A DNA stretch of 64,000 bases, from positions 12,914 to 76,913 of the forward strand of contig CAYSUK010000005.1 in the NCBI GenBank assembly GCA_964434265.1, in the 5' to 3' direction. Of this stretch, positions 17,716-40,905 are shown one piece after another. The translations under genes and the position numbers were made by a program. Every line of letters begins with the position of its first letter. The first letter of the stretch is position 1. Source of the stretch: an uncultured Christensenella sp. GTDB taxonomy: Bacteria; Bacillota; Clostridia; Christensenellales; UBA1242. A model generated the notes under the pieces. It was not told the DNA's origin, made no database searches, and saw only the letters and a program-made list of their open reading frames with translations.

Positions 17716-17716
17716 C

Positions 17717-18301: not shown

Positions 18302-18363
18302 ATGTAATACTAAATTGTTTTGTTTCGGTGATGGTTTGTGATATACTATGCATATAGGAGATA

Positions 18364-19084: not shown

Positions 19085-19269
19085 TTATAAGTGTGTAAGT
19101 AAAGTTATACTTAATATCTCATAATGAGTGTGATATCGTATGTTTTTAATCTGATTTAAAAGATATTTTAAAAACATATCAAAATAGATTTTGAGATTTT
19201 TTTATTATAATATATAATAAAAATACAACTAAATAACAACTTTTAATAAAATACAAGAATGGAGGGCTT

Positions 19270-20043: not shown

Positions 20044-20044
20044 T

Positions 20045-20968: not shown

Positions 20969-20971
20969 GGT

Positions 20972-21007
20972 AAAAAAATAAAGCAACTTAAGGTTGCTTT
21001 ATTTTTT
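20972..21007. terminator. bidirectional intrinsic terminator (parB / cvpA)
   Basis: AATAAAGCAAC / GTTGCTTTATT stem flanked by an A-run and a T-run, between convergent genes. Confidence 0.75.
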
Positions 21008-21024
21008 CTTCAAAACATATTAAT

Positions 21025-21705
21025 TTATTCGGTTGTAGTCTTTGTTTGAGTGCTTGGAGTAGTATTTGTATCGTCTGGAATTTCTTTATTTACGTCAGAT
21101 TTTTTAATAACATCTTGTATAATTTCTTGAATGTCTATGTCTTTAAGTTGGTTTTCTGTAAAGTCATCAACATAGTTGTAGACCCAGTTTGTAACAGTCG
21201 ATTGTTTGATGTAAGTTTCAACATTTGTAAAACGAGCAAATACTGTGCAGATTGCTAGTGTCACGATTACTATTATTCCGCCTTTAATTATTCCAAACAA
21301 CATTCCAAGAACACGATTTAGTCCGTTTAGAACAGTGTTTCCGTTTGTGATACTGTCAAATATTTTTGCAAGTAAGTAGATTGCAAGTTTGAGTAAGATA
21401 AACACAACAATTCCTGCAAAAATCATTGATAAAAATCCGGCAATTTCACTTCGCTTAAAGGTCATATTAAACAACGAAAATTGTTGTTCTTCAGTAAATT
21501 TACCAATAAGACCATCAAACATTTTTGGAGTATCCAATCCGATTGTGTTGTTTATAAACGAAGCACAAGGCTTGGCGAGATATATAGAAATAGCCACACA
21601 TACCGCTGTCGAAATAAGTGAAATCAGCGACTCAAAAAGCCCTTTCCAAAGTCCAATCAGCGCGAATATGATAATGATTGCAAAAAATATAATATCAACC
21701 CACAT
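21025..21705 (-). CDS. cvpA: CvpA-family membrane protein
   Basis: N-terminus WVDIIFFAIIIIFALIGLWKGLFESLISLIS is typical of CvpA. It has four to five TM segments and a T/P-rich tail. Confidence 0.75.
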   Translation of the reverse strand: MWVDIIFFAIIIIFALIGLWKGLFESLISLISTAVCVAISIYLAKPCASFINNTIGLDTPKMFDGLIGKFTEEQQFSLFNMTFKRSEIAGFLSMIFAGIVVFILLKLAIYLLAKIFDSITNGNTVLNGLNRVLGMLFGIIKGGIIVIVTLAICTVFARFTNVETYIKQSTVTNWVYNYVDDFTENQLKDIDIQEIIQDVIKKSDVNKEIPDDTNTTPSTQTKTTTE

Positions 21706-21852
21706 AATAGCCTCCGTGCGTATTATTTATAATAATATATCACAATCAATAAAATTTGTCATTTATTAAAAGCAACATTTTAATAATATTTAACCATAAA
21801 AGTATGAGTTTATTCGGTAATGTCAAATATAAAAAACAATAAGGTGGTGGTT

Positions 21853-22371
21853 ATGTCTGACAAAAATATCATTAAAAATCTCGCTCTCAAAATTGCAAAC
21901 ATGCATCTAAACTCAACTTCGCCAATAATTGTTATGTGTATAGGTAGCGACAAAATTGTGGGAGATATGCTGGGAGTAATTGTGGGTGAGCGATTAAAAC
22001 GACTTAACATTACAAACACATATGTTTGTGGTGAACTCAATAATCCAATCACTCAAAAAAATATTAAGGAAGAATATCTAAAAATACGAACCTTGCACCC
22101 AAATTCAAAAGTCCTTGTCATCGACTCGCTTCTTGGGGAAATCGAAGAAGTTGGGCAAATAAAAATGACCAAAAAGGGAGTATATGCGGGGGCGGAATTT
22201 GGTGACGGAACATATGTCGGAGATTGTAGTATGCTAGGTGTGGTTTGTCCAAAGGGTGTAAATGCACTGACTTTTTTGTCGAGTGTACGACTTGGACTTA
22301 TAACCAAAATGAGTGACATTATTGTGGGTGCATTTGTGCTTGCTGAAAAATATAAAATGGCGCTTTGTTAG
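21853..22371 (+). CDS. yyaC: YyaC-like (GPR-type endopeptidase-like) putative sporulation protein
   Basis: Contains VMCIGSDKIVGDMLGVIVGERL, which resembles the YyaC signature CIGTDRSTGDSLGPL. Its position next to parB matches B. subtilis. The start is set at ATG 21853, after an AAGGTGG ribosome-binding site. Confidence 0.65.
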   Translation: MSDKNIIKNLALKIANMHLNSTSPIIVMCIGSDKIVGDMLGVIVGERLKRLNITNTYVCGELNNPITQKNIKEEYLKIRTLHPNSKVLVIDSLLGEIEEVGQIKMTKKGVYAGAEFGDGTYVGDCSMLGVVCPKGVNALTFLSSVRLGLITKMSDIIVGAFVLAEKYKMALC

Positions 22372-22528
22372 TTTTATCTTCTAATTTGCGACATTTTTTG
22401 GGGTTGTGACTAATTTTAAAGTTTATTTTTACTATAAAATAAATATATTATATAACAAAGTCACTAAAAAAGTTGTAACCCAACTTTATTTGTGATAGAA
22501 TACCCTTAGTATTTATTGGAGGTAGAAA

Positions 22529-24715
22529 TTGGACAATAAAAAGAAAAATACAGCAAAACATTATGGAGTATGGCTTGCTATACTTGCTATACTTATACTT
22601 ATATTTTATCTTGCAAGCACAGGTGTTAGTGCTGAGAAAATCTCATATACGACAGCTAAAGATTATGTCGAGAGTGGTCGCGTAACAAATATCTATGCAG
22701 AAGGTGGCAAGGCATATATGCTTATGAAAGACACCGAAATAGATAAAGACGATTTTCCTAGTGAAGCAGATTATTATTTTGAGTACACTGCATGGAGCCA
22801 ACTTGAGTTTATAAACGACTACAATGCCGCTCCCACAACTACAGTAAAAGTTGTGCTCGAATATAAAAATCCTACCGCTTCGTTTATCGAAACTATTGCG
22901 CCATATGTAAGCATAGTTATAATGATAATTATAGGCATTTTGATTTACAAAATGTTTTCTTCAAAAGGAAACGGCGTCGGAGCATTTAATAAGAGCAAAG
23001 CGCGCTTGGTCGAGAAGAGCAATATCCGTTTTAACAATATTGCTGGTGCTGACGAAGAAAAAGAAGAAGTTCAAGAAATAGTGGAGTTTTTGAAAAACCC
23101 AGGCAAATTTAAAGCGCTTGGTGCACGTATCCCTAAGGGCATACTACTTGTTGGCCCACCAGGAACAGGTAAAACATTGCTTGCAAAAGCAGTTGCTGGC
23201 GAAAGCAACGTGCCTTTCCTATCTATCACCGGTAGTGACTTTGTCGAACTATACGTTGGTGTAGGTGCTGGCAGAGTAAGAGACTTGTTTGAGACAGCAA
23301 AACGTAACGCACCATGTATTGTGTTTATCGACGAGATAGATGCTGTCGGACGTCAACGTGGTGCAGGCCTTGGTGGCGGAAATGACGAACGTGAACAAAC
23401 ACTAAACCAACTTTTGGTTGAGATGGACGGATTTGAAGCAAACGAAGGCGTAATTGTACTTGCGGCAACAAATAGAGCAGACGTACTAGACCCAGCGCTA
23501 CTTCGTCCGGGCAGATTTGATAGACAAATATATGTAAACATTCCAGATGTTAGGGGACGTGAAGGCATACTAAAAATACATGCCAAAAACAAACCTATTG
23601 ACCCTAGCGTAGACTTTAAAGATATCGCTAGACTTACAAGCGGATTTACTGGTGCAGATATTGAAAACGTGCTAAACGAAGCTGCAATACTATCAGCTCG
23701 AAACGGCAAGTCTACAATCGGCATGACAGAGATTACTGAAGGCATAAATAAAGTATTGATGGGGCCACAAAAGAAGAGCCGACTAGTTACTGAAAACGAC
23801 AAAAAACTCACAGCATATCACGAAGCAGGACATGCTATTATCGCTAAGAAACTTGATTGTGGTGAAAATGTACACGAAGTTTCTATTATTCCACGTGGAA
23901 TGGCTGGTGGATACACAAGCACACGTCCAAGTGATGACGACGAGCATTATTCACTTTCAAAACTAAACAATCGCATATCCATGATGATGGGCGGACGTAT
24001 AGCCGAACAAATTGCGTTTGGGGATATTACTGCAGGAGCAAGTAGTGATATTAGTAAAGCTACAGAAATCGCTCGCAAAATGGTAACCGAATGGGGTATG
24101 AGCGAAAAACTAGGATTTTTGAGTTTTGGTAGTAAAAACGAAGTATTTATCGGTCGTGATTATCAAACACAAAACAATTATAGCGAAGCAACAGCATCGC
24201 TTATAGATAGCGAAATCAAACGTATTGTCGACGAAAACTATGCACGAGCATACAAAATATTGAGTGACAATAAAGACGCTCTAGACAATCTTGCAAACTT
24301 GCTTTTGGAAAAAGAAACTATATACACAAAAGAAGTAGATGAGGTTCTTGCAGGTATCGACTATAAAGAAATTGTCAAACGTATCGACAAAGAAGAAAAG
24401 AGTCGTAAAAAACAAGAAGACAAGAAAAAACGTGAGCAAGAAGAAGTAAATGCACTTAAGATTCAACAACTTAAAGAGCAAGCAGCTGAAGCACTCAATA
24501 ATGCTGGTGTTATATCCAAAAACGAATATGACAAAATAAAAGAGCAAGGTCAAAAACTTAGAGAAGAATTTGATGCAAAAGCTGAGAACAAAACTAAAAA
24601 GAAAAAAGTAGAGACTGAAAAAAAGGCTGAGACAGATACCAAGACAGAAAGTATCGAAAATAAGGCCGATTTAGAAGAAACTAAAAAAGAAGATAAGACA
24701 GACGACCAAAAATAG
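22529..24715 (+). CDS. ftsH: ATP-dependent zinc metalloprotease FtsH with long K/E-rich C-terminal tail
   Basis: Contains [28 protein letters not shown], the SRH region, and the zinc site HEAGHAI. The start is TTG, after a GGAGG ribosome-binding site. Confidence 0.95.
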
Positions 24716-24768: not shown

Positions 24769-25365
24769 ATGAAAAAAGTAATATCAATCATTTCTATTGT
24801 ATTGGTTGCACTTCTAGTGGGTGCGACAATCACACTTGCATGTGTAAAAACACATACTTTTGATGCCGTAGATGCACTTGGAGACTATGATAAAATTGAG
24901 TCTGTTGAGATTTTCAAAAACGGCAGTTCGTACAATACTTTTAGTAGTTATAGTGACAAAACAACAATTGACAAAATTGTTTCCCTTCACAAAGATTCGT
25001 TGAAAGACAATGTACTAAGTGCATTGTTCCAAGGAGCAACTGGTTTTGATGAGAGTTTTGACAAATTGTCTACATCTAAAAGTGTAAGCGATATTTATGC
25101 TGAAAATATTTGTATTTCATTTAAATTTAGCGAGAAGCAAACTTTAAAATGGAATGGCGAAAATGTTTTGACAGCGAAAGAAAAAACAGTAGAGTACAAC
25201 AAAATTATTATGCAACTAAATAATAGTAAAAACTTTGCTGATGTAGCTGTTTATGTACTAAACGATTCGACATCAAGCCTTTACAGAGTAAACACTCTTG
25301 CTCACCAAGCTGATCTTTATGATTATATCAATAAAATGGATTTTGCAGGTAGCTCGGCAAATTAA
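24769..25365 (+). CDS. putative lipoprotein, function unknown
   Basis: Signal peptide MKKVISIISIVLVALLVGATITLAC with a lipobox-like TLAC. A GAGGA ribosome-binding site lies upstream. Confidence 0.65.
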   Translation: MKKVISIISIVLVALLVGATITLACVKTHTFDAVDALGDYDKIESVEIFKNGSSYNTFSSYSDKTTIDKIVSLHKDSLKDNVLSALFQGATGFDESFDKLSTSKSVSDIYAENICISFKFSEKQTLKWNGENVLTAKEKTVEYNKIIMQLNNSKNFADVAVYVLNDSTSSLYRVNTLAHQADLYDYINKMDFAGSSAN

Positions 25366-25450: not shown

Positions 25451-26581
25451 TTATTTGTCATGAGATTTGCAATAAAGTGCGAAGAAATCTCCAAGATTTA
25501 CTTTGCGATATTTACGTAACAAATCCATAGGACTGGTCGCCCAGCCATTTTGTATTATAAGTTCGGTCGCAATTCCGCCTAGCACATAACTTTCTATTGT
25601 GCCTATTTTTTGTGTAAGGTAGAGTAGATTGTTGAAGGCTTGTTCTTTTGGCATTTTTGTAAGCATGTAAATATAACATTGTTCGATAGCGGTGTTATAA
25701 TTTTTTATTGTAAGTAGTGGTTTTAATATGTTTGCAGAAAGTATCTTGGCATTTTTAGTATAAATACTTTTTCGTGCGTGAAGACTACTAAACATCGCCC
25801 AACCATTTAGTACCCATCGTGACCCAGTGTCAAAATTTCGTGTTTGGTTTTGAAAAACACTATTGAAAAAATGTGCTTTGCCAGGATAAGCATTGCGATA
25901 ATATTGGTATTCGATATTGTCGCCTAGTGTATGTAGAGTAACAAAGTCTACAGGTGTGCCATTAAAATGGTGCGAACTAAGTCGTCCAAATCCACTTGTT
26001 TTTTCATATGACACAATATATTTTGTGTCGTCTTTTTCACCCCATATTCCTTGCAATAATCGGTCATTTTGAATATTGTTTTCAAGTCGATTTATTGTGT
26101 CTTCGGCATTTTTATTACTTGAAAGTGAGATATTTTCAAAACTGCGTTTGGAGTATTTTATTATTTCGCGTTTGACCGCACTATAATATTTGCCGAGAAT
26201 GGTTTTGTATAGTGGGATAGTGACGTTTTGGCATTTTTTAGTAGTTGCTGTCGTCAATAAATACATGAAAAATTCTTTATCGTCGGCATATTTTGTGTTT
26301 ATAATATCGACAAAATATTGTTTGAGTGGCGTCGGACAAAACAAAACACCATTTATGCGTTTGGTCACAACATCTTTAAAGTGAGATTTGTCATTCTCTG
26401 ACAAATTGTCAAAAGTCTCCATTACTTGCAAGATAGAAAAATTGTGACGATAAAACTCGATTTCTTTGTCGAGTATTTTTTTACTGTCTTCGTCAAGATG
26501 AAAACCATATCTCTTAATTTCTTTGTAAACATTGTTGTCAAATGCAACTTTATTTTTCCATTTTTTATCTTCGTATATCAT
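25451..26581 (-). CDS. hypothetical protein, weak DUF885-like C-terminal resemblance without a zinc motif
   Basis: A 376-aa ORF flanked by terminators. Blocks such as NGWAMFSSLHARKS and YLTQKIGTIESYVLGG resemble DUF885 order, but I see no HExxH. Confidence 0.5.
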   Translation of the reverse strand: MIYEDKKWKNKVAFDNNVYKEIKRYGFHLDEDSKKILDKEIEFYRHNFSILQVMETFDNLSENDKSHFKDVVTKRINGVLFCPTPLKQYFVDIINTKYADDKEFFMYLLTTATTKKCQNVTIPLYKTILGKYYSAVKREIIKYSKRSFENISLSSNKNAEDTINRLENNIQNDRLLQGIWGEKDDTKYIVSYEKTSGFGRLSSHHFNGTPVDFVTLHTLGDNIEYQYYRNAYPGKAHFFNSVFQNQTRNFDTGSRWVLNGWAMFSSLHARKSIYTKNAKILSANILKPLLTIKNYNTAIEQCYIYMLTKMPKEQAFNNLLYLTQKIGTIESYVLGGIATELIIQNGWATSPMDLLRKYRKVNLGDFFALYCKSHDK

Positions 26582-27465: not shown

Positions 27466-27559
27466 GTTTACCTCCAATATTATATATGTGCAGTCTTGTA
27501 TGTTTGACACTTATCGTCATATTTTGCACAACACTTAAATAGGTATAAATAAAGGGACG

Positions 27560-27606
27560 GTTGCAAAAGGGACACGTATATAAAAAATATTGTTGCAAAA
27601 GGGACA
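27560..27606 (+). repeat. two 15-bp direct repeats GTTGCAAAAGGGACA (candidate operator)
   Basis: Copies lie at 27560-27574 and 27592-27606, 32 bp start to start. A third AAAGGGAC core lies at 27551-27558. All sit just upstream of the promoter of the 27688 gene. Confidence 0.6.
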
Positions 27607-27622
27607 TATTTAAAAATATGTG

Positions 27623-27651
27623 TTGACTAGATATCATTATTGGTGTAAAAT
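27623..27651 (+). promoter_or_regulatory. sigma-A-type promoter of the 27688-37475 module
   Basis: TTGACT (27623-27628), a 17-bp spacer, then TAAAAT (27646-27651). Confidence 0.55.
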
Positions 27652-27687
27652 ATACAATGTAAAAATATGTTTTGGAAAAGGAGAGAC

Positions 27688-28473
27688 ATGGCAAGACAAG
27701 CACGTAAAATTAGTTCACTTGGCACATATACTGTTGTGTTACGTGGCAAAACTGATTGTTTTGAAGATGCTGATTTACGGCATACTTTTTTGTGTTGTTT
27801 GTTTAAGTACACAAGTGCCGACATGTGTAGTGTGCTAGCTTATGCTTTTTCAAACAAAGACTGTTATATGGTTGTGCAAGAAAAGGACGGGACGTTGTCT
27901 GATTTTATGCGACGTAGCACGGGACTATTTGCAAGGCTGTATAATAAAAAGACATTGCATATGGGGAAGGTGTTTTTTGATAGATATCTAAGCGAACCTA
28001 TAAACACAAATGACGACACAATCACTGCTATTAAGCAAGTATTCAAACTAGAAAATATGGAAGGTTATACTTCGTGCAAAGCAAATTACTTTAAGGATAT
28101 GTTTGTGGATAGTAGTTTTGTAAAAGAACGTTTTACTCGTCTCCAATGGCGACAAGAACTTAAAAAACCAATTGAGAAAGCAAACTACAAAATAAGTGTT
28201 GGAAAACTTACTGACGAACAAGTCAGTGCGTACATACTTCAAAAACACAATATAAAAGTCACACAGATAAACAAGCTTAATCCAAACAAACTTGAAAGTG
28301 TAATAAAAGAAGTGGTCGATGTTACAAAAGTGAGTGCACGCCAACTTGCCCGTATTACATCACTTCCGCTAAGGTTGCTTTGGAAATTGTGCTCGAAAAA
28401 GGAAAAACAAGAAAAGAATGGAATTGTGTCCCAAGCGACCATTTCTAAGGACCAAAACAAAATACAAAAATAA
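27688..28473 (+). CDS. IS200/REP-type (HUH, Y1) transposase-like domain with lost catalytic residues, fused to a C-terminal DnaA-C-like HTH
   Basis: MARQARKISSLGTYTVVLRG...FED...LAYAFSNKDCYMVV...GKVFFDRYLSEP follows the family order (ARK..G.YH...RG, AYCLM.NH.HLL, GHLFQDRYKSE). KDC replaces HxH, and QVFKLEN replaces YIHQNP. The C-terminus VSARQLARITSLPLRLLWKL is HTH-like. The start is set at ATG 27688, after an AAGGAG ribosome-binding site. Confidence 0.65.
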   Translation: MARQARKISSLGTYTVVLRGKTDCFEDADLRHTFLCCLFKYTSADMCSVLAYAFSNKDCYMVVQEKDGTLSDFMRRSTGLFARLYNKKTLHMGKVFFDRYLSEPINTNDDTITAIKQVFKLENMEGYTSCKANYFKDMFVDSSFVKERFTRLQWRQELKKPIEKANYKISVGKLTDEQVSAYILQKHNIKVTQINKLNPNKLESVIKEVVDVTKVSARQLARITSLPLRLLWKLCSKKEKQEKNGIVSQATISKDQNKIQK

Positions 28474-28484
28474 AAGGAGTAGTT

Positions 28485-29360
28485 ATGAGCAAAAAGAGAT
28501 ATTTTATAAATCTTGCAATCATCGTGATATTTGCATCACTGACTGGTTTTTTTGCGGGCAACTACTATGTTAAAAACTACACAGGGGCTGTACTTGCGGT
28601 GACTGAGACTGAAGAACAAGTTCGTGGCAATGATGTGTCGGCCACTTTGAAAAAAGCAAAAGGCAAGACCCCTGCAAATCTTACAAGTGTCGAAAACTTT
28701 ATTTTGGCCGAGTATTATCTAAATCAAAAAGACTATATCTACAAAGAAGTAACGGGTAAAATTACAGCAGCGGGAGTTACACAAGGATTACATAGTTTTA
28801 AAGTATTAAAAGACGGCTATGTAATGAGTGAAAAAGTAAGTAGTAGTAAGTTTGTAAAAGTCGCTGACCGCACATTATATAAAGTAGGCGATGAGTCTGT
28901 AAATTATTATAAGGGAAGCAATATTACATCGTCTTACTCTGCGACATGGAAGACCGAACCAAGCAAGGTATGGACGCTTGACGAATATAAAGAGAAATAT
29001 GGCTCAAATCCGACCGCATTTATAGGTTATGTTATAGGAACAAAATCCACACTCGGTGCAAAGTCATCGACACCTAAAAAACTTGCAAATGGAAACTATG
29101 AATGCACTATTGTGACTGATACATATTTTTCGGTTATGAATTATATGTACGAGATTCGTACAACCAGTGGTAGCGACAATTTTCCACGTATGGATAGTTC
29201 GACTATCACATTTGAGATTACACCTGATTGGAATTTTGTACGTATAGACTACAAAGAATCGTACTCGGTGTCTATTGCAGTGCTAGGATACACAAAATGT
29301 TCAGGTGCACTTACTGAGACATTTAGTTATGACGGGACATGGAAAAACCCACTTATCTAA
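28485..29360 (+). CDS. N-terminally membrane-anchored extracytoplasmic protein (291 aa), function unknown
   Basis: An AAGGAG ribosome-binding site lies upstream. There is a single TM segment (FINLAIIVIFASLTGFFAG) and a beta-rich remainder. The ORF is tightly packed between the HTH gene and the giant gene. Confidence 0.7.
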   Translation: MSKKRYFINLAIIVIFASLTGFFAGNYYVKNYTGAVLAVTETEEQVRGNDVSATLKKAKGKTPANLTSVENFILAEYYLNQKDYIYKEVTGKITAAGVTQGLHSFKVLKDGYVMSEKVSSSKFVKVADRTLYKVGDESVNYYKGSNITSSYSATWKTEPSKVWTLDEYKEKYGSNPTAFIGYVIGTKSTLGAKSSTPKKLANGNYECTIVTDTYFSVMNYMYEIRTTSGSDNFPRMDSSTITFEITPDWNFVRIDYKESYSVSIAVLGYTKCSGALTETFSYDGTWKNPLI

Positions 29361-29378
29361 TAATATAAAGGAGCAACT

Positions 29379-32300
29379 ATGAAAAAGGAGAAAGTCAAAA
29401 AGACCAAACCTAAGAAAAAGTTTTCGCTATGGCGAATGCTTAGTTATGTAGGCTGTTATGTGTTTGTCACATTTGCAGTGGCTTTTGTTGTGGTGTCGGT
29501 AAATAGCTCGACATATTCTTTCACGCCTCCTTCACTTGACGACAATGAGACTGTGCAAAGTTCGCTTCTTGGAAATATGGTATCAAATATCATGACCGTC
29601 GAAGACATGACGACTTCGCTCGGACTTACTATTCAAAACGGCGACACAAACATAAATATCACAGGCGATGTCCAATTAAAAATATACGAAGAATTTTCCG
29701 GAGTCGAAGCAAAAGCAAATCTTTCTGTAGGTTATAATGGGACAGTTGTTGATGTGCAAGTAATGTATACTGACAAGTTGTACTTGACACTTGATAATCG
29801 TACATTTGTGCTTGATTTAAATGATGGATTTGAGGGTATTTTTGGAATACTAAATGTATTAGGTGTCGAATTAGACCTAAATCTTGACGACTTAATGGGC
29901 AGTCTTGATATGAGTATACTTGATACACTTGGCGACTATATTACTGAGTCAACTTTGGAAAATGGTTATGCACTTTCTATTGACTATAATGGGCTGTCAG
30001 CGACAGTTGTGCTTGATAGCGAATACAATATAGTTTCGGTGTCAGCACCATCGCTTAGTTTTGATGGCTGGGATATCTCACTAAATCTTGGAGTAGAGTC
30101 GCAAAACCAAGGGCTTGTATTTGACGAAGTAGTGGGTGACACAAGCCTTAGCCCAATTTTCAGACTTGTCGAGTGTGGGCTAAACACATTTAAAGGCATA
30201 AATTATACAATAAACACAAATATAAATTATGACAAATACAACTTCGGTTTTGACGCTGTTGTAGATGGCAGTGATGCAAAACTTCTTACAAATATCAGCG
30301 GACAAAACTTAGCATTCTATCTAAAAGATGGCATAGGATATGGTGATTTTGGTGCTATTAAAATCAAAGGCGGCATGGACGATATAAACAAAGTAATTGA
30401 TATCGTGACCGACCTTGTTCCTGATGATATGATTCCGGATTTTGATATTGATATGGACATGGATACTATTCTTGGTCTTGTGCAAAAGGCAATTTCGCAA
30501 AACTGGAACATAGTAGGTGATGAAGATGGTCTCGCATTTGAGTTTGATGGCAATATCCTAAACATAACTTATCAAAACGACAAAATATCTAATATAGAAT
30601 TTGATATATGTGGTGTTACGGGTAGTATTAGCCTTGCAGAAAATACAAACAGTATTGTTGTGCCTGAGCAAAAATATATGCAAGTGGGCGACCTTGCCGA
30701 CTTTATCCGTCCTGTATATAATATAGTTTGCCTTGACCGAATAAATGCAACAGCAGATATCATGCTTGATGGCAAAACTTACGACTTAAATATTATGTTT
30801 GATAAAGCAACAAATAGGGTAAGTGCTAATACAAACGTATATAATAAGGTTGTCAAATTTGATTATTTTGACCACACTTTGTATCTTCAAATCGACGACG
30901 TAAGAGTATGCACTCCTACAAGCGATGTGATGGGGCTAGTGGTTTATGTATTGCAAAACTACTGTGGTGATATTAGTGTTGATGACCTAAAATCAGCATT
31001 TGAAAACGAACTTACACTTGATGTAGAAGCAAATAAATATAGCTTTGCATTTGGTGGTGTAAACTTAGATTTTGAAATCACAAACGATGAGATAAGTGGT
31101 CTTTCAGTTGTTGTTGGGGATATATGTGCAGAGATGACTTTGACTTACAATGACATGACTCCACTTGTTGATATTGATGTAGATGCATATACTACACTTG
31201 ACGTAACAATGGAAAATCTCCAATATATATTTGGTCTTGTGAAAGAATATATTGAAGGTGGCGAATATAATTTTGATATTGACTTTGAGTACGGCGAGTA
31301 TGCACTTAGCGGATATATCGGTCTAAACAATAATGATTTGGCATGCGACCTTAATATATCGGCATTTGGATATGATGTTCGCATAATTGTGAGTGACAAA
31401 ATCGGTCGAGTATATATAAAAGACCTTGCAATATCTTGCGAGTATGACACTTTGGCTGGTTTGGTCGCATATGTATTTAAAACTTTGGATATAAACATAG
31501 ATGTTGATAAATATCTTGCAAATTTGCCAGAATTTGATGCACAAGCAATTGAAGACTTACTAAACAATGTGACTTTGTCATATACAAACAGTACTTTTGT
31601 AATCGGTTATGAAGATATCACACTAAATGTTAGACTTGGACTAAACACAATTAAAAATATCTTTATGACATATAAAGATTTTAGTGTAAATATCAAACCC
31701 ACATATGCAAAAAATGTTATTATTCCAAATGTAGAGTATATCTATATTGAAGATATTGTAGACATTTTAAATAGCGTAAAACCTATCATTCAAAACAAAT
31801 ATTTGACAGCAAATTTTGAAATAAATATAAATAATATTGAAGTGTCGGGTGTAATCAAGTTTGATTATACTGACATGCGATTGGAAGCTACAATACATGT
31901 ACTTGACCAAACAATAAATATCGATTATATCGACGGAAAAATATATATCGCATATGACGGAGTTAAACTGGCTTGCAAGACAGAAGATATACTTGACCTT
32001 ATTAAAGGATATATTGATATTGAAGACAAAATATCTGATTTAAAATCAGAAGATATTACTGCCGATGATATTCTTGACAAACTTGCACTACTAAGTATTA
32101 TCAAAACACAAAATGGTTTTGATATTACATACGACACTTATACATTCAAACTCACTCTTGCTGATGGTATACTAAGTGGTCTTACATATGGCGAAGATGT
32201 AAATATTACATTCGACCATAGTACTCCAGTATTTGAAAATATCGACACTAATGCATATCAATATGTAGACCTTACATACGCAAATGTAAGTAGTCTTGTC

Positions 32301-35300
32301 GAAAAAGTAAAAACATATATTGAAAGTGATGAGTACTATATCGACCTAAGCGCTTCGTACGGCGAGTATGGAGTAAATGGTTGGATAGGGCTAAAGAAAG
32401 GTCACATCGTGGGTCGACTTGAAAGCACAATCCTAAACAAACTACTTCAAATCGATATTGTAAAAGACGTCGTGTATATCGACTATGACGGACTAAAACT
32501 ACAATGTGCTTTGGCTGATTATTCAAAAATTGCTGAACTACTACAAAGCGAGTGGAATATCACAATCCCAGACTTAGACCTTGTAACTCCACTCACAATG
32601 TTATACACAGATACAAACATTACATTTGACGACATACAAAGTATCTTAAACAAACTTACTATATCGAATACAGGCATGACACTACATATCGAGTATGAAA
32701 GAGTAAGTGCAAGTATCGACCTTGCTAATTACAAAGTAAATAGCGTGGTTGTGCAATATGACGACCTTAGAGCTATATTAAAACCAACTACCGCTCACAC
32801 GAACAATATCTCTGGCGAGTATATTAAATTAGTTGATGTAATAGATTTAGTAGAAGTTGTGCTTCCTATTATTGAGAACAAACACCTCACAATGACAGTG
32901 TCGACAAACATAAAAGGTGTTGAGATTGGTGCAGTAGTTTCGCTTGATCATGCAAGCAAACAAGTAAATGTTGTACTTAATGTTTTGAATGAAACAATAA
33001 ATATTAGATATCAAAATGGCAATATATATATTGATTTTGATGGTGTCAAACTTGCTTGTTCGACAAGTGATATACTTGACCTTATCAAAGGATACATGCC
33101 TGATGCAGATATCGACGAAATGTTGTCGGGTAAAACAATTGAAGAGACAGTGAATGATGTTTTGGATATATTGAGAGAAATATCTCTTTCGGGTACATCA
33201 AATGGTTTTGAAATCGGTTATGCCGAACACTTATTTAATCTTGAAATAACAAACAATATTTTAACTAGCCTTACATATGGCGAAGATGTAAACATTACAT
33301 TTGATCATAGCGCTCCAGTGTTTGAAGAAATCGATACTAATGCATATCAATATGTAGACCTTACATATACAAATGTAAGTAGCCTTGTCGACCAAGTAAA
33401 AACATATATTGAGAGTGATGAGTACTATATCGACCTAAGTGCTTCGTACGGCGAGTATGGAGTAAATGGTTGGATAGGGCTAGAGAAAGGTCACATCGTG
33501 GGTCGACTTGAAAGCACAATCCTAAACAAACTACTTCAAATCGATATTGTAAAAGACGTCGTTTATATCGACTATGACGGACTAAAACTACAATGTGCTT
33601 TGGCAGATTATTCAAAAATTGCTGAACTACTACAAAGTGAATGGAATATCACAATCCCAGATTTAGACCTTGTAACTCCGCTCACAATGTTAGACACAGA
33701 TACAAACATCACACTTGACGATGTGCAAAGTATCTTAAACAAACTTACTATATCAAATACAGGTATGACACTACATGTTGAGTATGAAAGAGTGAGTGCA
33801 AGTATTGACCTTGCTAATTACAAAGTAAATAGCATAGTTGTACAATATGATGACCTTAGAGCGACACTAAAACCAACCACCGCACACACAAACAATATCT
33901 CTGGCGAGTATATTGACATTGGAAGTTTGACAAACGTGGCTAGAGCCATTAATAAATCAATGGCAAATATGACTATGAGTGGTGTGCTTACAGTGGATAT
34001 TGTGTTTGCAAATGAAGTAAATACTTTGAATATAAACTATGGCATTACATACAAAGACAAAGATTTGAGAGTGTATGGAAACTTCACATTCAAAGGACTA
34101 AATGTAAATTTGTATTATTTTGACCGCACAATATATCTTGACGTTGTAGGCATGAAAATTTATGCAAGCATTGACGACTATGAAGATATTATTGCATGGC
34201 TAAATAAGACATTCGAACTAAATATAGATATTGAAAAAATAAAAGACAGCACTGACCTATCGTTTGACGATATCAAACTTGATTTTGTCAAAGATTGGAC
34301 TATTACAGACGAATATATAAGTGCTGATGTGTTTGAAAATATTCACCTTGACGTGTACTATGGCGACACAATCGAGAAAGTTGTGTTTGAAGCGGGCGAT
34401 AAAGGTGCAACTATTGTTTGCACATCATTTGATGCACTTACATTTGATAGTATTGATAAGACACAATACAGCAAATATACTATTGTAACAAATACTATTG
34501 ATGATATCCTAAATACAATTAAGAAAAAGTCATTTGATATATCGGCGGTTGCAAGAGTATTTGAAAATGACCAAACTACATACAATGCGGCCGTGACTCT
34601 TGCATTTGACTTTGAAAATCACTTCAAAGCATATGGCGAAGCAAATGTAGTAGACTTACTCGATGAAAATGGCTCAGTTAACTTTGTCGCATCTTGGGAC
34701 AAATACAGCCTAGACGACAATCGCGACTATATATTCGTAAATTACAATGGCATGAAACTTCGCATGAATAGCGATGCGCTCAAAGAAGTGTTGGTACTTG
34801 GATTGCAAATACTAGGAGTTGACCCAAGCATACTAGGATTTTTGGAAGATGTCAGTGACGACTTTAAGGTTGATTCGTCAAATCTAAACAATATTATGCC
34901 AAATCTCGATATGGGAAATCCGCTTAATATGTTGAGATACATAAAATCGCTAAACCTTACAAACAGCCAATTTACACTTGTGCTTGATGGTTCGTTCTTT
35001 GGCGATGGTGTGGCCGATATGGAAATTGTGCTTCATACAAACAATGGCACAATCGTAGGGCTTGACCTAAACAATATATTTGTAGGCGGAACAGAAACAT
35101 TTAATCTTGCAATTTCGCTAAATCCATTTGAATCAGTGCCAGAAATACAAGACAAAGTAAACTACATGGATCTTAGCGGTGCAAGCCAACTTCTAAAAGC
35201 GGTTATAAACACATCTAGCAAAAAGAGTTATCACATCACAGGTGCGGTAAAACTAAATGCGGCAAATCTTATTAAAAAGACTGTCGGAGTAGACATGGGT

Positions 35301-37475
35301 GTGGTGATAGGTGACGACGGCAAAACAATTATAGATGTTACACTATCAAATTATCCACTTTATGTCGGTGTAAACACCGAGTACTCAAATTATAGTGCAC
35401 CTATAAATCGTATGCGAACTATCAATATGCGATTTAAAGATGGTTATGCATATCTAAGAATGTATGATGCAAAATATTTGAGTGCTGGGACATACGAACG
35501 TATAAGTAAAGTCCCTGTGAGTTATTTGATACAAAACCTAAGTTATTACATGCAATACATTTTGGGCTTTACAGACAATATTCAAGCCGCAATAGACGAA
35601 GCCATAACAGCAAGCCAAAACTACACTGGGGCTACTGATTATAGCAATATACTTCTTGACTACAATCAAACAGACAATAAGCATTCGCTCACACTAAATT
35701 TGCAAGAACTTGCACACAATGACCAACTTGATACTATGGAAGTTGGACTAACGACAGTAAATAGTAGAGAGACGGGCAGAAAAGACATGTTGTATCGACT
35801 TGACATGAATGTTATTATGCTTGGCGACTTGATTAAAATCACAACAGATGACGAAGCTAATCTCAAACTTGTCGACCTAAATTCTACATACGACATGACA
35901 GAAGCAAATGCGTTTATCCAAAACTATGAAAATAGCGGATACGTGACCTTTGGCGAGTATGTAAGCGAAGGTGGCAAAACATTTAGTAAGTCAAACGACA
36001 AAGATGTTACCATTACATTCTACGACCAAGACAACACGGCGACTACTGTAAGTGGCAAAGTCGGAAGTCTAATAAATTATCCAAGTGTGACTGAGACACT
36101 TGCAGATGGCAGAAAGTTTAAGGGTTGGTATTATTATGCAAATAGTGATAAGACCAAACTCAAAGAGTGGACGCATAGAAACATGCCATTAAATAGCATG
36201 GAACTATATGGCATATGGGAAAACACATATACAGTGACACTTATCGACAATGACCAAACATATATGACATACAATCTATTTAAAGGTGAAAAACTAAATT
36301 TACCAGATATAGAAAACCAATTTGTCGAGACTGACGGAGTGCGAAGCGGTAAAGAATTTGCCGGTTGGTACGACGGAATACTAAAACGTGATGAGTTGTC
36401 TATCAAAACCGACGTTACACTTAAAGCACATTGGGCTGATGCAACATATTATCAAATCACATATATCGACGGCGACCAAACCACATATAAGTGGGTAAAA
36501 GAAGGTAGCCAAGTCGAAGTAGGTTCGAAGTCAAACTATATCGGCACATACGATGACGCACAAGTTGTGTTTGACTGGCGTGGTTGGTATAATGGTGACA
36601 CACAAATTACAAGTTTTGTAGCAGAAGCACCTATGACCCTTGTCGGGAAGTGGGAGATATGCAGTATGGATATGGCTCGCACACTCACTATAAAAGACGG
36701 CGACCAAGTTCTAAGTAGCACACCACAACTTATCGATTACAATATTGTTGTGCCAGAAAATGATAAAATTACATATGACACATGGTATTATCTTGATGCT
36801 GACCTTACTGAAAGATACTATATCGAAACTATGCCAGACTATGACTTAACTTTGTATATCGCAAATGTTTATACTGTTAGTATCAAATATGTCGATAGTA
36901 TCACAAACGGCGAAATCCGAACAAAGACTGAGACTTATCAAGTAAGACAAGGAACAGTTCTTGCAGATGTTTTGCCAGACCCAAGCAGATTTAATACACA
37001 CGGCACAGACGGTCAAATTATAAATATCTACGACGACAATATCCATCAAATATCAAACACATTTGAAGAATACACAACAATGTATGACAAAATGCCAAAC
37101 TGTGATTTTGATACAGAAGAATTGTGGATACATACTGACAGATATTATTATGACATCGTATTTGATACAAATTGGAATTATGAGCCAAGAATAATTTGGC
37201 CAAGTAATGCAAGCAATTATGTGGATTATCCTTCATTTACTCCTGAAACTATGAGAATACTTGAAGGTGAGACATTAGATTTGTCAGGTAGTGAGTACAA
37301 ACCTTCATGTACAATGAAAGGATCGTTTAAAACATATGATTACTCATGTTCGGGCTGGTCAACCACTATTCCTGATGATGGTAGTAATGGTGGCGGAAGT
37401 ACTAGTTATACAGTAAATGCTAATGATGCTACAAATGGTGTAATTACACTTTATGTATGTTGGGAAAAACAATAA
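29379..37475 (+). CDS. giant (2698 aa) N-terminally membrane-anchored repeat protein with C-terminal Listeria-Bacteroides-type (Flg_new-like) repeats
   Basis: An uninterrupted 8.1-kb ORF with an AAGGAG ribosome-binding site. The N-terminus is basic and followed by a TM segment (YVGCYVFVTFAVAFVVVSV). About 2100 aa consist of degenerate ~180-aa modules with the recurring block xIYIDYDGxKLxC..D...L. The last ~500 aa carry roughly six repeats with GWY/W..W signatures (FKGWYYY...LYGIWE, FAGWYDG...LKAHW, WRGWYNG...LVGKWE, CSGWST...LYVCWE). Confidence 0.85.
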   Translation: MKKEKVKKTKPKKKFSLWRMLSYVGCYVFVTFAVAFVVVSVNSSTYSFTPPSLDDNETVQSSLLGNMVSNIMTVEDMTTSLGLTIQNGDTNINITGDVQLKIYEEFSGVEAKANLSVGYNGTVVDVQVMYTDKLYLTLDNRTFVLDLNDGFEGIFGILNVLGVELDLNLDDLMGSLDMSILDTLGDYITESTLENGYALSIDYNGLSATVVLDSEYNIVSVSAPSLSFDGWDISLNLGVESQNQGLVFDEVVGDTSLSPIFRLVECGLNTFKGINYTINTNINYDKYNFGFDAVVDGSDAKLLTNISGQNLAFYLKDGIGYGDFGAIKIKGGMDDINKVIDIVTDLVPDDMIPDFDIDMDMDTILGLVQKAISQNWNIVGDEDGLAFEFDGNILNITYQNDKISNIEFDICGVTGSISLAENTNSIVVPEQKYMQVGDLADFIRPVYNIVCLDRINATADIMLDGKTYDLNIMFDKATNRVSANTNVYNKVVKFDYFDHTLYLQIDDVRVCTPTSDVMGLVVYVLQNYCGDISVDDLKSAFENELTLDVEANKYSFAFGGVNLDFEITNDEISGLSVVVGDICAEMTLTYNDMTPLVDIDVDAYTTLDVTMENLQYIFGLVKEYIEGGEYNFDIDFEYGEYALSGYIGLNNNDLACDLNISAFGYDVRIIVSDKIGRVYIKDLAISCEYDTLAGLVAYVFKTLDINIDVDKYLANLPEFDAQAIEDLLNNVTLSYTNSTFVIGYEDITLNVRLGLNTIKNIFMTYKDFSVNIKPTYAKNVIIPNVEYIYIEDIVDILNSVKPIIQNKYLTANFEININNIEVSGVIKFDYTDMRLEATIHVLDQTINIDYIDGKIYIAYDGVKLACKTEDILDLIKGYIDIEDKISDLKSEDITADDILDKLALLSIIKTQNGFDITYDTYTFKLTLADGILSGLTYGEDVNITFDHSTPVFENIDTNAYQYVDLTYANVSSLVEKVKTYIESDEYYIDLSASYGEYGVNGWIGLKKGHIVGRLESTILNKLLQIDIVKDVVYIDYDGLKLQCALADYSKIAELLQSEWNITIPDLDLVTPLTMLYTDTNITFDDIQSILNKLTISNTGMTLHIEYERVSASIDLANYKVNSVVVQYDDLRAILKPTTAHTNNISGEYIKLVDVIDLVEVVLPIIENKHLTMTVSTNIKGVEIGAVVSLDHASKQVNVVLNVLNETINIRYQNGNIYIDFDGVKLACSTSDILDLIKGYMPDADIDEMLSGKTIEETVNDVLDILREISLSGTSNGFEIGYAEHLFNLEITNNILTSLTYGEDVNITFDHSAPVFEEIDTNAYQYVDLTYTNVSSLVDQVKTYIESDEYYIDLSASYGEYGVNGWIGLEKGHIVGRLESTILNKLLQIDIVKDVVYIDYDGLKLQCALADYSKIAELLQSEWNITIPDLDLVTPLTMLDTDTNITLDDVQSILNKLTISNTGMTLHVEYERVSASIDLANYKVNSIVVQYDDLRATLKPTTAHTNNISGEYIDIGSLTNVARAINKSMANMTMSGVLTVDIVFANEVNTLNINYGITYKDKDLRVYGNFTFKGLNVNLYYFDRTIYLDVVGMKIYASIDDYEDIIAWLNKTFELNIDIEKIKDSTDLSFDDIKLDFVKDWTITDEYISADVFENIHLDVYYGDTIEKVVFEAGDKGATIVCTSFDALTFDSIDKTQYSKYTIVTNTIDDILNTIKKKSFDISAVARVFENDQTTYNAAVTLAFDFENHFKAYGEANVVDLLDENGSVNFVASWDKYSLDDNRDYIFVNYNGMKLRMNSDALKEVLVLGLQILGVDPSILGFLEDVSDDFKVDSSNLNNIMPNLDMGNPLNMLRYIKSLNLTNSQFTLVLDGSFFGDGVADMEIVLHTNNGTIVGLDLNNIFVGGTETFNLAISLNPFESVPEIQDKVNYMDLSGASQLLKAVINTSSKKSYHITGAVKLNAANLIKKTVGVDMGVVIGDDGKTIIDVTLSNYPLYVGVNTEYSNYSAPINRMRTINMRFKDGYAYLRMYDAKYLSAGTYERISKVPVSYLIQNLSYYMQYILGFTDNIQAAIDEAITASQNYTGATDYSNILLDYNQTDNKHSLTLNLQELAHNDQLDTMEVGLTTVNSRETGRKDMLYRLDMNVIMLGDLIKITTDDEANLKLVDLNSTYDMTEANAFIQNYENSGYVTFGEYVSEGGKTFSKSNDKDVTITFYDQDNTATTVSGKVGSLINYPSVTETLADGRKFKGWYYYANSDKTKLKEWTHRNMPLNSMELYGIWENTYTVTLIDNDQTYMTYNLFKGEKLNLPDIENQFVETDGVRSGKEFAGWYDGILKRDELSIKTDVTLKAHWADATYYQITYIDGDQTTYKWVKEGSQVEVGSKSNYIGTYDDAQVVFDWRGWYNGDTQITSFVAEAPMTLVGKWEICSMDMARTLTIKDGDQVLSSTPQLIDYNIVVPENDKITYDTWYYLDADLTERYYIETMPDYDLTLYIANVYTVSIKYVDSITNGEIRTKTETYQVRQGTVLADVLPDPSRFNTHGTDGQIINIYDDNIHQISNTFEEYTTMYDKMPNCDFDTEELWIHTDRYYYDIVFDTNWNYEPRIIWPSNASNYVDYPSFTPETMRILEGETLDLSGSEYKPSCTMKGSFKTYDYSCSGWSTTIPDDGSNGGGSTSYTVNANDATNGVITLYVCWEKQ
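32181..33914 (+). repeat. 1089-bp-period tandem duplication inside the giant gene
   Basis: Segments 32181-32825 and 33270-33914 are near-identical, with about a dozen amino-acid differences over 215 residues. An older, diverged unit lies at about 31100-32180. The track's antisense ORFs 32272-32526 and 33361-33615 mirror each other at the same offset. Confidence 0.9.
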
Positions 37476-37543
37476 AATCTTGACTCTACACAAGTAACAC
37501 GCTTGTGTAGGGGACAAGAAATTATACAAAAGGAGAGAATATT

Positions 37544-38080
37544 ATGAAAGCAGAATATCGAAATGCACAAAGGTCGAAAGAACTCATAAAAGGTGCACTT
37601 ATCACGCTTATCGAGAAAAAGCAAAACGTATCTGATATTACAATTACCGAAATTGTAAATTTAGCAAACATAAATCGTGGGACATTTTATAATCATTACA
37701 ACAATATTATGGAAGTTTTTGACGAGATGAAAGCCGAAGTGATAGGACGTATGTCCGAAGCCCTGATGTCGTGCCATGTTGAAGAAGATATCGAGTCTTT
37801 TATGGATATTCTTGTCGAGCACTTTAAGAAAAACGAGAAAACTTACAAAAAGATAATCAAAGGTATCCCACGTGAAATTTTTGCCGACCTAAAACTTCAA
37901 TTTGTAAAACAAATTCAGCTCATAAACAACAATATTGACCCTGTTATGTTAAATTTTGCTGTAAATGGTCTTGCTGGATTGTATCTTGACTATCTAGATG
38001 GTCGAACAGAATTTTCCTTAGATAGGATAGGTCGCCGAACTACTGAGATTTTGAAAAAACTACTTTACACAAAAGAGTAG
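37544..38080 (+). CDS. TetR/AcrR-family transcriptional regulator
   Basis: N-terminal HTH ITITEIVNLANINRGTFYNHY. Size is ~178 aa, and an AAGGAG ribosome-binding site lies upstream. Confidence 0.85.
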   Translation: MKAEYRNAQRSKELIKGALITLIEKKQNVSDITITEIVNLANINRGTFYNHYNNIMEVFDEMKAEVIGRMSEALMSCHVEEDIESFMDILVEHFKKNEKTYKKIIKGIPREIFADLKLQFVKQIQLINNNIDPVMLNFAVNGLAGLYLDYLDGRTEFSLDRIGRRTTEILKKLLYTKE

Positions 38081-38105: not shown

Positions 38106-38141
38106 CAAAAAAAGATGTATCAAAATTGATACATCTTTTTT
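38106..38141. terminator. bidirectional terminator (TetR gene / cls)
   Basis: AAAAAAAGATGTATC / GATACATCTTTTTT. Confidence 0.75.
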
Positions 38142-39756: not shown

Positions 39757-40905
39757 TTAGTTTTTTTGCGATTGCTCAACATTTTCGTTTATGGTCATTT
39801 CAATTTGTTTGAAATTTTGTGCTTTCTCTAATTCTTTTTGAGCACGATTAAGTTCGCGTCTAACATCAGCTGTCGATTTGTAGAATGCACCACCGTCGTG
39901 GGATTGGAAGTATACGCCAACAATTCGACGACTGCTGGTGTTTAGAAGTGTGTAAGCTGCACGAATACGCGCACCGCCCACAACGTGTTGTACAACCTTA
40001 GAATTTGACTCTATAAATACATTATATGCTCTAATGCGACCTTGGTTGTCAATAATAGTAATTCCGTCGTAGTTTAACATGGTCATAAATACATCGGCAA
40101 AGGCACGGAGTTTGCTTTCGTTAAAACTTTTTGTCTGTAAAAATAGTTTTCCAAACTCTATTGGCTCGGGCAACCATGTCCCGTCACTGAATATCCCTTT
40201 GGTGTCTTTAAAGTCTTTGTCCACAACAAGACAAATTGTTCCGCTTAGTGATTTAAAGCAGTTGTTGAAGATATTTTCAAGTATGTTTTTAATACTTTCA
40301 AGTTTGCGTGGAGTGGTCTTTAGTTTTGATACACTATCATTAACAAAACGTTTGATTGTGTCGTCCCACTTGGACTCCTTTTTGTCTTCGACAGAAAAAT
40401 TTATATCAAGGTGAGTACCTCTGACACCTTTGATACTTACTACTCCGTTTGATAAAACATTTAGATACACAAGTTTTGATTTTTGCTTTAATGATTCTAC
40501 TGTGTGTTCGTCAAATATTTGTGCTTCGAGCGAGCGGTCTTTAAGCGAATTGATACATTTTACAAGTCCGTATTCTACGTTTTCGCTTCCATAATTTATA
40601 TACACAGTCCAACCGCTTTTGCAAAAACACATTAGCGCTTTTAGACGTTGGTTGAAGTTTACACTTTGTTCGTCGATATAAAATGGGATTTTGACACTAT
40701 CAGGCACGTTTTTGACAATAGCACCTATGTTGTTGGTCATAAGAAGCATTGGCCTTATCTTTTCGCCTTCTTCTTCCCAACGCACAAGTCGGTAAAAAAT
40801 ATTTAAAAGCCTGTCGACATCGCCAGACGATAAGGTCTTAAATTCGTTTGCGAATAGTTCGCGAATAGATTTTGTTGCGTCATCGAAAAAAATGTTTGTT
40901 TCCAT
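39757..40905 (-). CDS. diadenylate-cyclase-fold (DisA_N/DAC-like) protein with degenerate catalytic motifs and a ~220-aa N-terminal region
   Basis: The C-terminal half GTICLVVDKD...LNYDGITIIDNQGRIRAYNVFIE...VGGARIRAAYTLL...IVGVYFQSHDGGAFY follows the DAC order (GALIV..., HDGAVII..G.I.AA, GTRHRAA, VVSEETG). DGI replaces DGA, and RIR replaces RHR. Confidence 0.6.
   Translation of the reverse strand: METNIFFDDATKSIRELFANEFKTLSSGDVDRLLNIFYRLVRWEEEGEKIRPMLLMTNNIGAIVKNVPDSVKIPFYIDEQSVNFNQRLKALMCFCKSGWTVYINYGSENVEYGLVKCINSLKDRSLEAQIFDEHTVESLKQKSKLVYLNVLSNGVVSIKGVRGTHLDINFSVEDKKESKWDDTIKRFVNDSVSKLKTTPRKLESIKNILENIFNNCFKSLSGTICLVVDKDFKDTKGIFSDGTWLPEPIEFGKLFLQTKSFNESKLRAFADVFMTMLNYDGITIIDNQGRIRAYNVFIESNSKVVQHVVGGARIRAAYTLLNTSSRRIVGVYFQSHDGGAFYKSTADVRRELNRAQKELEKAQNFKQIEMTINENVEQSQKN

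Follow-up and report, generated by a model that had tools for sequence, protein, structure and literature searches.

A transposase-related gene, a predicted LolA-fold partner and a giant membrane-anchored protein form a conserved locus in uncultured gut Clostridia

Organization of the locus

The DNA analysed here is a stretch of 64,000 nucleotides (the window) from an uncultured Christensenella sp. (contig CAYSUK010000005.1 of assembly GCA_964434265.1, positions 12,914 to 76,913). It contains three tightly packed plus-strand genes, referred to below as gene 1, gene 2 and the giant gene. Comparison with relatives identified gene 2 and the giant as the invariant core of this locus, and structure models point to the same fold, that of the LolA/LprG/RseB proteins, in the products of both. 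The DNA had previously been read from its sequence alone, without database searches. This sequence-only reading had described three plus-strand genes separated by 11 and 18 nt, each behind an AAGGAG-type ribosome-binding site, and a promoter TTGACT-17-TAAAAT preceded by direct repeats; both descriptions hold. The open reading frames are separated by 11 nt (gene 1 and gene 2) and 18 nt (gene 2 and the giant), an AAGGAG or AAAGGAG ribosome-binding site is located just 5' of all three starts, and the direct repeats are two exact copies of a 15-bp sequence.

27560..27574, plus strand: distal copy of the 15-mer GTTGCAAAAGGGACA, centre near -91, numbered from the inferred start of transcription
27592..27606, plus strand: promoter-proximal copy of the 15-mer GTTGCAAAAGGGACA, 16 nt upstream of the -35 hexamer, centred at about -60
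27623..27651, plus strand: sigma-70-like promoter TTGACT-17-TAAAAT, 10 of 12 consensus matches, -10 hexamer at 27646-27651
27688..28473, plus strand: gene 1, 261 amino acids from MARQ; an in-frame ATG upstream at 27667 would give 268 amino acids
28485..29360, plus strand: gene 2, 291 amino acids
29379..37475, plus strand: giant gene, 2698 amino acids, a single unbroken open reading frame
37478..37519, plus strand: hairpin 3 nt past the giant stop codon, -22.4 kcal/mol, z = -7.5, no U-tract

All 18 homologues of gene 1 begin with MAR(Q/K)AR and the ribosome-binding site precedes that codon, so that translation of gene 1 most likely starts at 27688. The promoter hexamers on their own are weak evidence, because consensus sites are common in DNA of 35% GC content: a scan of this AT-rich stretch gave 65 sites versus 49 expected. 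The element TTGAC is kept in the relatives at the same spacing from the 15-mer. At the other end the sequence-only reading had let the module stop at a hairpin. The hairpin is real, but it lacks the U-tract of a canonical terminator, and the terminator scan did not list it among the intrinsic terminators; it may stabilise the 3' end or terminate transcription in part.

The giant protein, gene 2 and their conservation

Both the gene 2 product and the giant had been read as membrane-anchored proteins, and an N-terminal anchor is present in each of them. In the giant a 19-residue N-terminal tail, 53% of which is Lys or Arg, precedes the hydrophobic helix. According to the positive-inside rule the N-terminus is therefore placed in the cytoplasm and the rest of the protein outside. 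A further claim, that recognisable repeats are confined to the last ~500 amino acids, had to be given up, since a self-comparison and an iterated profile revealed nine clear units of about 180 amino acids at residues 55-1697 and a divergent tenth one at 1696-1925. The parts of the giant are as follows.

29436..29504, plus strand: transmembrane anchor, residues ~20-42 (helix 17-46 in the model), with an N-terminus conserved in all homologues
29541..35153, plus strand: array of ten tandem ~180-amino-acid units, residues 55-1925 (boundaries from a hidden Markov model, HMM)
32168..33556, plus strand: recent in-frame duplication of two units with a period of 1089 bp (363 amino acids), best cores 32168-32467 and 33257-33556
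35160..35945, plus strand: divergent region, residues ~1928-2189, with a weak partial match to the unit profile (E = 1e-4 at 1928-1992) and none to Pfam
35946..37472, plus strand: Flg_new-like repeats, residues 2190-2698, at least three units of ~75 amino acids with the pattern F/WxGW...LY/VxxW (Listeria-Bacteroides repeat)

The units alternate between two types and thus make up a super-repeat of 363 amino acids, and most of them are only 15-25% identical to one another. The duplication stands apart with a DNA identity of up to 93% over 300 nt and 85% identity between residues 902-1100 and 1265-1463; its period exceeds the limit of Tandem Repeats Finder (500), and it was seen with a separate repeat search. 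The number of units differs among relatives, with six in the closest ones (L016, L020) versus nine in the window and a range of 5-13 in the family. From residue 1928 onward the protein may contain part of an eleventh unit. The Flg_new-like repeats at the C-terminal end have confident precomputed counterparts (E <= 1e-5) in the homologous giants. A polymorphic toxin or enzyme at this end was considered and rejected, since the protein ends in these repeats and Pfam gave no other domain there; an LPXTG-anchored adhesin was rejected likewise, no LPXTG motif being present in the giant.

To obtain structural information, residues 1-790 of the giant were modelled with AlphaFold2 using 41 sequences, with the homologues drawn from an exhaustive HMMER search. 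The model (predicted local distance difference test, pLDDT, 77) contains the anchor helix and four units, each of which is built from a helix, about six strands, further helices and about five strands (about 11 strands in all). A Foldseek search with this model returned RseB, LolA, LprG, LprF and MucB with a probability of 1.00 and a template-modelling (TM) score of 0.45-0.55 per target domain. Units 1-4 are, as modelled, LolA-like, and units 5-10 were assigned the same fold because they match the unit profile. The gene 2 product was modelled from 16 sequences with a pLDDT of 87 and a predicted TM score (pTM) of 0.81. In this model a helix at the N-terminus (residues 3-32) leads into an open beta-barrel that is accompanied by helices, and Foldseek placed LprG on top among the PDB structures (2e-5), followed by RseB, LolB, SAOUHSC_02783 and other lipid-binding barrels; as for the giant units, the probability was 1.00 and the TM score 0.45-0.55 per domain. 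By its model, gene 2 encodes a membrane-anchored, single-domain LolA/LprG/RseB-like protein located outside the cytoplasm.

On the sequence level nothing comparable was found. The giant, whole or split into pieces and repeat units, gave no significant match in Pfam or NCBIfam, and the unit profile returned nothing from the PDB sequences. Gene 2 had no match in Pfam, NCBIfam or PDB sequence searches, neither as a single sequence nor as a profile. In the same three resources the LolA, LppX_LprAFG, MucB_RseB, LolA_like and DUF4367-type families matched neither gene 2 nor the giant units. The resemblance between gene 2 and the giant units is one of fold only. Profile searches against Pfam, NCBIfam and the PDB placed none of the three proteins of the locus in a characterised family. 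The earlier statement that the locus has no assignable function can be made narrower: the Foldseek searches proposed in that reading recovered a LolA-like fold in gene 2 as well as in the modelled giant units. The ectodomain of gene 2 (28590-29357) has an isoelectric point (pI) of 8.3, compared with an acidic 4.1 for the unit region of the giant (29541-35153), a weak hint at electrostatic complementarity.

Homologues of the giant were gathered from the DNA flanking gene 1 and gene 2 homologues and by the exhaustive HMMER search. The giant is represented by 83 clusters (50% identity) among 1.84 billion proteins, almost all of them 1,600-4,900 amino acids long, and collinear homologues measure 1655-2493 amino acids; gene 1 and gene 2 correspond to 18 and 15 clusters among 5.8 billion proteins. 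The carriers that could be named are metagenome-assembled genomes of uncultured gut Clostridia from human and chicken samples. Public sources held no name for any member of the five gene 1, gene 2 and giant clusters that were looked up.

A search for co-occurrence, as the sequence-only reading had suggested, showed that the three genes recur in the same order and on the same strand in at least nine lineages (the window, L001, L013, L014, L016, L018, L028, L049 and L051) and in loci of the same groups (L002 and L021 with L001, L015 with L014, L017 and L020 with L016, L019 with L018). The junctions between the genes are tiny or overlapping in the relatives. In the groups of L001, L013, L014, L016 and L018 the triad shares its flanks, consisting of gidB-parAB-cvpA-DUF1256-ftsH, a 198-amino-acid gene, a 376-amino-acid gene and galU. 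In L028, L049 and L051 the triad is kept although every flanking gene differs and the giant is only 23-24% identical (24% in L028). The genes upstream of the giant in these three loci are relatives of gene 1 and gene 2, as indicated by hhalign (2e-43 and 2e-19) and by HMM searches (E from 1e-41 to 1e-66). The lowest identities noted for a triad are 24% for the giant, 24% for gene 2 and 31% for gene 1.

Other relatives keep only part of this arrangement. In a sister clade (L003-L009, L022, L023, L025 and L026) gene 2 and the giant stay together; in L003-L009 a divergently transcribed XRE/HTH_3 gene of 285-288 amino acids takes the place of gene 1 (for example at 6630-7496 of L003, minus strand) and the 15-mer is absent, which looks like a swap of regulators at the same module. 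The pair occurs without an adjacent regulator in L010-L012, with a Fic protein upstream, and in L024 and L027, with dnaD/dnaI-like genes upstream. Wherever a separate gene 2 exists in the loci examined, it lies immediately upstream of the giant. In six of the 83 giant representatives (P0048, P0053, P0057, P0071, P0088 and P0109, with 2,954-4,884 amino acids) a gene 2-like domain is fused into the giant itself, where it occupies residues ~85-340, behind the anchor and ahead of the first repeat unit. One example is locus L050 (P0088, 6001-20655), which contains neither a separate gene 2 nor a gene 1 and in which the gene 2 profile matches the giant of 4884 amino acids. P0088 has in addition a regular super-repeat of ~382 amino acids, and a pair of ABC transporter genes is located upstream of it.

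The adjacency in all contexts and the natural fusions are strong comparative evidence and suggest that gene 2 and the giant work together physically; the fusions in particular support such a partnership. The proposal that the three genes form one unit stands insofar as the triad is kept in at least nine lineages, but, judged by gene content, only the pair of gene 2 and the giant is invariant, since gene 1 is replaced or absent in some clades. Giants routinely lacking both upstream genes, which had been named as an argument against a unit, were not observed with respect to gene 2 and were observed in part with respect to gene 1.

Gene 1, the upstream repeats and the surrounding genes

Gene 1 encodes a basic protein (pI 9.6) which had been interpreted as a dead HUH-transposase-like protein with a helix-turn-helix (HTH) motif. 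Searches with the sequence and with profiles gave no significant Pfam or NCBIfam match and neither a Pfam Y1_Tnp nor a PDB match. A weak but recurrent similarity of the N-terminal ~110 residues to NCBIfam NF047646 (REP-associated tyrosine transposase) was detected in nine of 17 family members, the lowest E being 1.5e-5. The protein of the window itself reached E = 0.013 over residues 14-114 (15 bits versus a curated cut-off of 80). No HxH, the HUH motif, is present in the 17 aligned members or in the gene 1 protein of L028, and the only histidines of the window protein (His32, His91 and His187) are not part of one. The segment that should align with 'AY..M.NHxHLL' of the family reads AYAFSNKDCYMVV, and the catalytic tyrosine of the Y1 family has apparently been lost. 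The first half of the earlier interpretation is thus reasonably supported by the sequence comparison: gene 1 appears to be a dead relative of the REP- or TIR-associated Y1 transposases that has lost the HUH histidines. The HTH half found no counterpart in profile searches. It would correspond to the near-invariant C-terminal segment VTKxSARQLxRITSLPLRxLW, which presumably forms the DNA-binding region. A likeness of the C-terminus to DnaA domain IV was also considered, and the comparison gave no support for it. Gene 1 is intact and under clear purifying selection across lineages at 31-93% identity, and its single copy occupies a conserved position on the chromosome, adjacent to the cluster of replication-origin genes.

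The 15-mer GTTGCAAAAGGGACA occurs exactly twice in the window, compared with 0.19 copies expected by chance, and the two copies are 32 bp apart. With at most two changes and an invariant GGGACA core it was found upstream of gene 1 in all ten gene 1-bearing lineages examined, and the promoter-proximal copy is always located 16-18 nt upstream of TTGAC. In L028 the 15-mer is exact though gene 1 and the giant are only 31% and 24% identical. L001, L016, L020 and L049 likewise have two copies, the distal one lying 30-32 bp upstream of the one near the promoter. None of the loci without gene 1 contains an exact 15-mer, and in those that were re-scanned no copy with up to two mismatches was detected upstream of the gene 2-giant pair. 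No inverted copy flanks gene 1; both copies in the window are direct and upstream. JGI metagenome contigs were also scanned for the 15-mer together with TTGAC; the 20 matches are similar in number to a rough chance estimate, and none of these contigs encodes gene 1, gene 2 or the giant.

The 15-mer thus tracks the presence of gene 1 at a fixed spacing from the promoter, which argues for a functional link between the two and makes the repeats candidate binding sites of the gene 1 protein. Centres near -60 and -91 place both copies on the same side of the DNA helix, where class I activators typically bind. From these positions we infer that gene 1 binds the 15-mers and switches on the operon, its own gene included. 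The GGGACA core is similar to the motif GGGGWSAS common to the terminal repeats of TIRYT elements (PMC3733652); this similarity covers few bases and is possibly due to chance. On this view the operator may derive from the end of a transposon.

The module is located in the following surroundings.

2622-9173 and 14023-24715: replication-origin gene cluster with gyrB (minus strand), dnaA and dnaN, then trmE-gidA-gidB-parA-parB-ftsH
24769-25365, plus strand: 198-amino-acid gene with a weak UPF0160/MYG1-like match
25451-26581, minus strand: 376-amino-acid gene without a family match
37544-38080, plus strand: TetR-like gene
38108-38141, bidirectional: first canonical terminator, a perfect 15-bp stem flanked by the plus-strand TetR-like gene and the minus-strand cardiolipin synthase gene
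39757-40905, minus strand: 382-amino-acid open reading frame beside the cardiolipin synthase gene, no Pfam match at E <= 1e-5

Because the window carries the replication-origin genes gyrB, dnaA, dnaN, trmE, gidA, gidB, parA, parB and ftsH, the module can be placed on the chromosome, about 21 kb from dnaA, and not on a mobile element. Its base composition is the same as that of the surroundings. The GC skew is negative up to about 6-8 kb and positive beyond, and oriC is probably located near 4.6-6.5 kb. The 198- and 376-amino-acid genes are kept together with galU just upstream of the module in all of the close and mid-distance relatives, not in L028, L049 and L051. Since the first canonical terminator lies 3' of the TetR-like gene, read-through from the giant into this gene is possible. 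Membership of the TetR-like gene in the module was rejected, as the giant is not followed by a TetR-type gene in any of the relatives examined. In L016 (18466-20798), L017 (16196-18528) and L020 (from 10739) the position of the TetR-like gene is taken by a second large gene of at least 838 amino acids whose product starts with a lipoprotein-type signal, …LLAVGVFAGCGNK. An Rfam search gave no match in the window.

Models for the function of the locus

We tentatively favour the interpretation that a single operon of these monoderm gut Clostridia builds a very long envelope fibre, with gene 1 in control and gene 2 at the base. The sigma-70-type promoter would drive gene 1, gene 2 and the giant gene, and the gene 1 protein would bind the GTTGCAAAAGGGACA repeats and probably activate the operon. 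The giant, which its N-terminal signal-anchor holds in the membrane, would have its N-terminus in the cytoplasm and the remainder outside. Its LolA-fold modules would form an acidic stalk across the wall, plausibly tens of nanometres long by a rough estimate, which would display the Flg_new repeats on the outside of the cell. The length of the stalk would be tuned as modules are gained and lost, as in the Periscope and fibrillar adhesins (PMC8201768, PMC9210967). The gene 2 protein would dock at the base of the fibre and touch the membrane-proximal part of the giant, and the pockets of the LolA fold may additionally hold hydrophobic ligands.

Each part of this proposed assembly has a known counterpart from which it departs. 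Like the Periscope and fibrillar adhesins (PMC8201768, PMC9210967), the giant combines an anchor, a tandem stalk of one fold and a different distal domain; relatives differ in the number of repeats, and one part of the array arose by a recent duplication and is still nearly identical. Those adhesins differ in that they have a C-terminal LPXTG wall anchor instead of an N-terminal membrane anchor and a small Ig-like or SHIRT-type stalk domain instead of a LolA fold of 180 amino acids. The low identity between most giant units also sets the giant apart, its variation in unit number was seen at the species level, and an obligatory small partner is not a feature of that class. With the superfamily of LolA, LolB, LprG-LppX and RseB-MucB, gene 2 and giant units 1-4 share the open antiparallel beta-barrel with helices in its concave face as well as the location outside the cytoplasm. 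They differ from it by the lack of a sequence-family match, by an N-terminal transmembrane anchor in place of the cleaved signal or lipobox of known members, and by the chaining of about ten copies in one giant polypeptide of a monoderm. Neither gene 2 nor the giant has a lipobox, and no LolCDE-type ABC transporter is conserved beside the pair in the loci examined. The AsmA/TamB/YhdP bridge-like proteins also combine an N-terminal transmembrane anchor with a very long, beta-rich and repeating extracytoplasmic region. In contrast to their continuous beta-groove the giant model consists of discrete helix-plus-barrel domains, and the host of the giant is a monoderm; such a bridge was rejected, as none was among the listed top 50 Foldseek matches and no DUF490 or AsmA match was obtained with Pfam.

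Gene 1 resembles the RAYT/TnpA_REP/TIRYT proteins in its weakly Y1-like N-terminal domain, its conserved C-terminal extension and the specific short repeat adjoining the gene. C-terminal HTH-like extensions have been described for the TIRYT proteins, subclass 2.1 of TnpA_REP (PMC6006769). The differences are the missing HUH motif, the single copy at a fixed chromosomal site at the head of an operon, and repeats which are direct, promoter-phased and found upstream only, without REP hairpins or terminal inverted repeats. A conserved tyrosine also appears to be missing from the helix where it would be expected.

Several observations weigh against the fibre. The giant model has a pTM of 0.47, too low to establish how the units are placed with respect to one another or whether they form a rod. 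LolA-fold domains are not known to serve as stalk domains and are normally ligand carriers, which would rather favour a role in lipid handling. The last 509 residues of the window giant match PF09479 (Flg_new) with E = 3e-4 and 21.2 bits, short of the cut-off of 27. The differences in unit number were observed between relatives at the species level, not between strains. The gene 2 profile and the giant unit profile show no sequence relationship (hhalign probability 0.1%). With respect to gene 1, its putative DNA binding is deduced from the co-occurrence with the 15-mer, and for an HTH no family or structure was matched with the C-terminal profile, the whole protein, Pfam, the PDB or the comparison with DnaA domain IV.

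An alternative for the pair of gene 2 and the giant is a relay for lipids or other hydrophobic ligands, in which gene 2 would extract a lipid, a glycolipid or the acyl chain of a lipoprotein and pass it to the first giant module, from where it would travel outward as in a bucket brigade. The hand-off from LolA to LolB, the export of glycolipids by LprG and LppX in mycobacteria and the Lpt bridge would be analogues. The shared LolA/LprG/RseB fold, whose characterised members have acyl chains or glycolipids as ligands, speaks for this possibility. The same holds for the strictly conserved, membrane-anchored single-domain partner, which is sometimes fused in the membrane-proximal position where a loader would be expected, and for the galU and cardiolipin synthase genes next to the module in the window. 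On the other hand, the conserved module contains no ABC transporter or other energy source in the loci examined, and the galU neighbourhood is lost in L028, L049, L051 and L003. The giant units are, according to the model, discrete domains joined by loops without a continuous groove, and the rapid gain and loss of units (5-13) suits a spacer better than a tuned relay. We consider the relay somewhat unlikely, and it would not be mutually exclusive with a stalk. A more elaborate version, a conduit through the wall in which gene 2 loads a chain of at least ten LolA modules with lipids or lipid-anchored molecules, under an activator exapted from a Y1 transposase and an operator derived from a TIRYT repeat, appears rather improbable.

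The role assigned to gene 1 in the fibre operon can be questioned separately. Gene 1 could be a transposase relic that is decaying or otherwise employed, and the 15-mer could be bound by another factor or act as an UP-like element. This would agree with the failure to match an HTH family and with the occurrence of the gene 2-giant pair without gene 1 in several clades; by their similarity to TIRYT GGGGWSAS (PMC3733652) the GGGACA repeats could be relics of transposon ends. A decaying gene is difficult to reconcile with an intact reading frame under purifying selection and a near-invariant C-terminal segment, or with a single copy at a conserved site beside the replication-origin cluster. The 15-mer is moreover present exactly where gene 1 is, at a fixed distance from the -35 hexamer, and no inverted copy flanks the gene. 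This alternative is unlikely in our view. Finally, the three genes could be mere syntenic neighbours of one clade without any functional link. Gene order alone is indeed weak evidence within a close clade, because the flanks (ftsH, the 198- and 376-amino-acid genes and galU) are also conserved in close relatives. The triad persists, however, in L028, L049 and L051 with all flanks different, the gene 2-giant pair persists in every context examined, and the gene 2-like domain is fused to the giant in six representatives. Mere synteny is therefore strongly disfavoured and very improbable.

The folds themselves are known, but their assembly, consisting of 5-13 tandem LolA-fold domains, an obligatory partner and a putative Y1-derived regulator with its operator, appears to be undescribed, and a literature search on tandem LolA-fold giants and exapted Y1 regulators returned nothing relevant. 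The giants would represent an envelope protein family that is recognised by no current domain library and that is assembled from a fold previously met in lipid carriers of a single domain. The question of whether they act as stalk or as lipid relay bears on the way in which thick-walled bacteria reach across their own wall, and the conserved gene 2 partner, sometimes fused to the giant, offers a concrete and testable interaction of two proteins. Gene 1 together with the promoter-phased 15-mer is a candidate for a Y1 (TnpA-type) transposase exapted as a transcription factor, for which the recently described TnpB-derived regulators are a parallel case. Every carrier identified here belongs to the uncultured Clostridia that live in the gut of a host, and the fibre may matter for their colonisation of the host.

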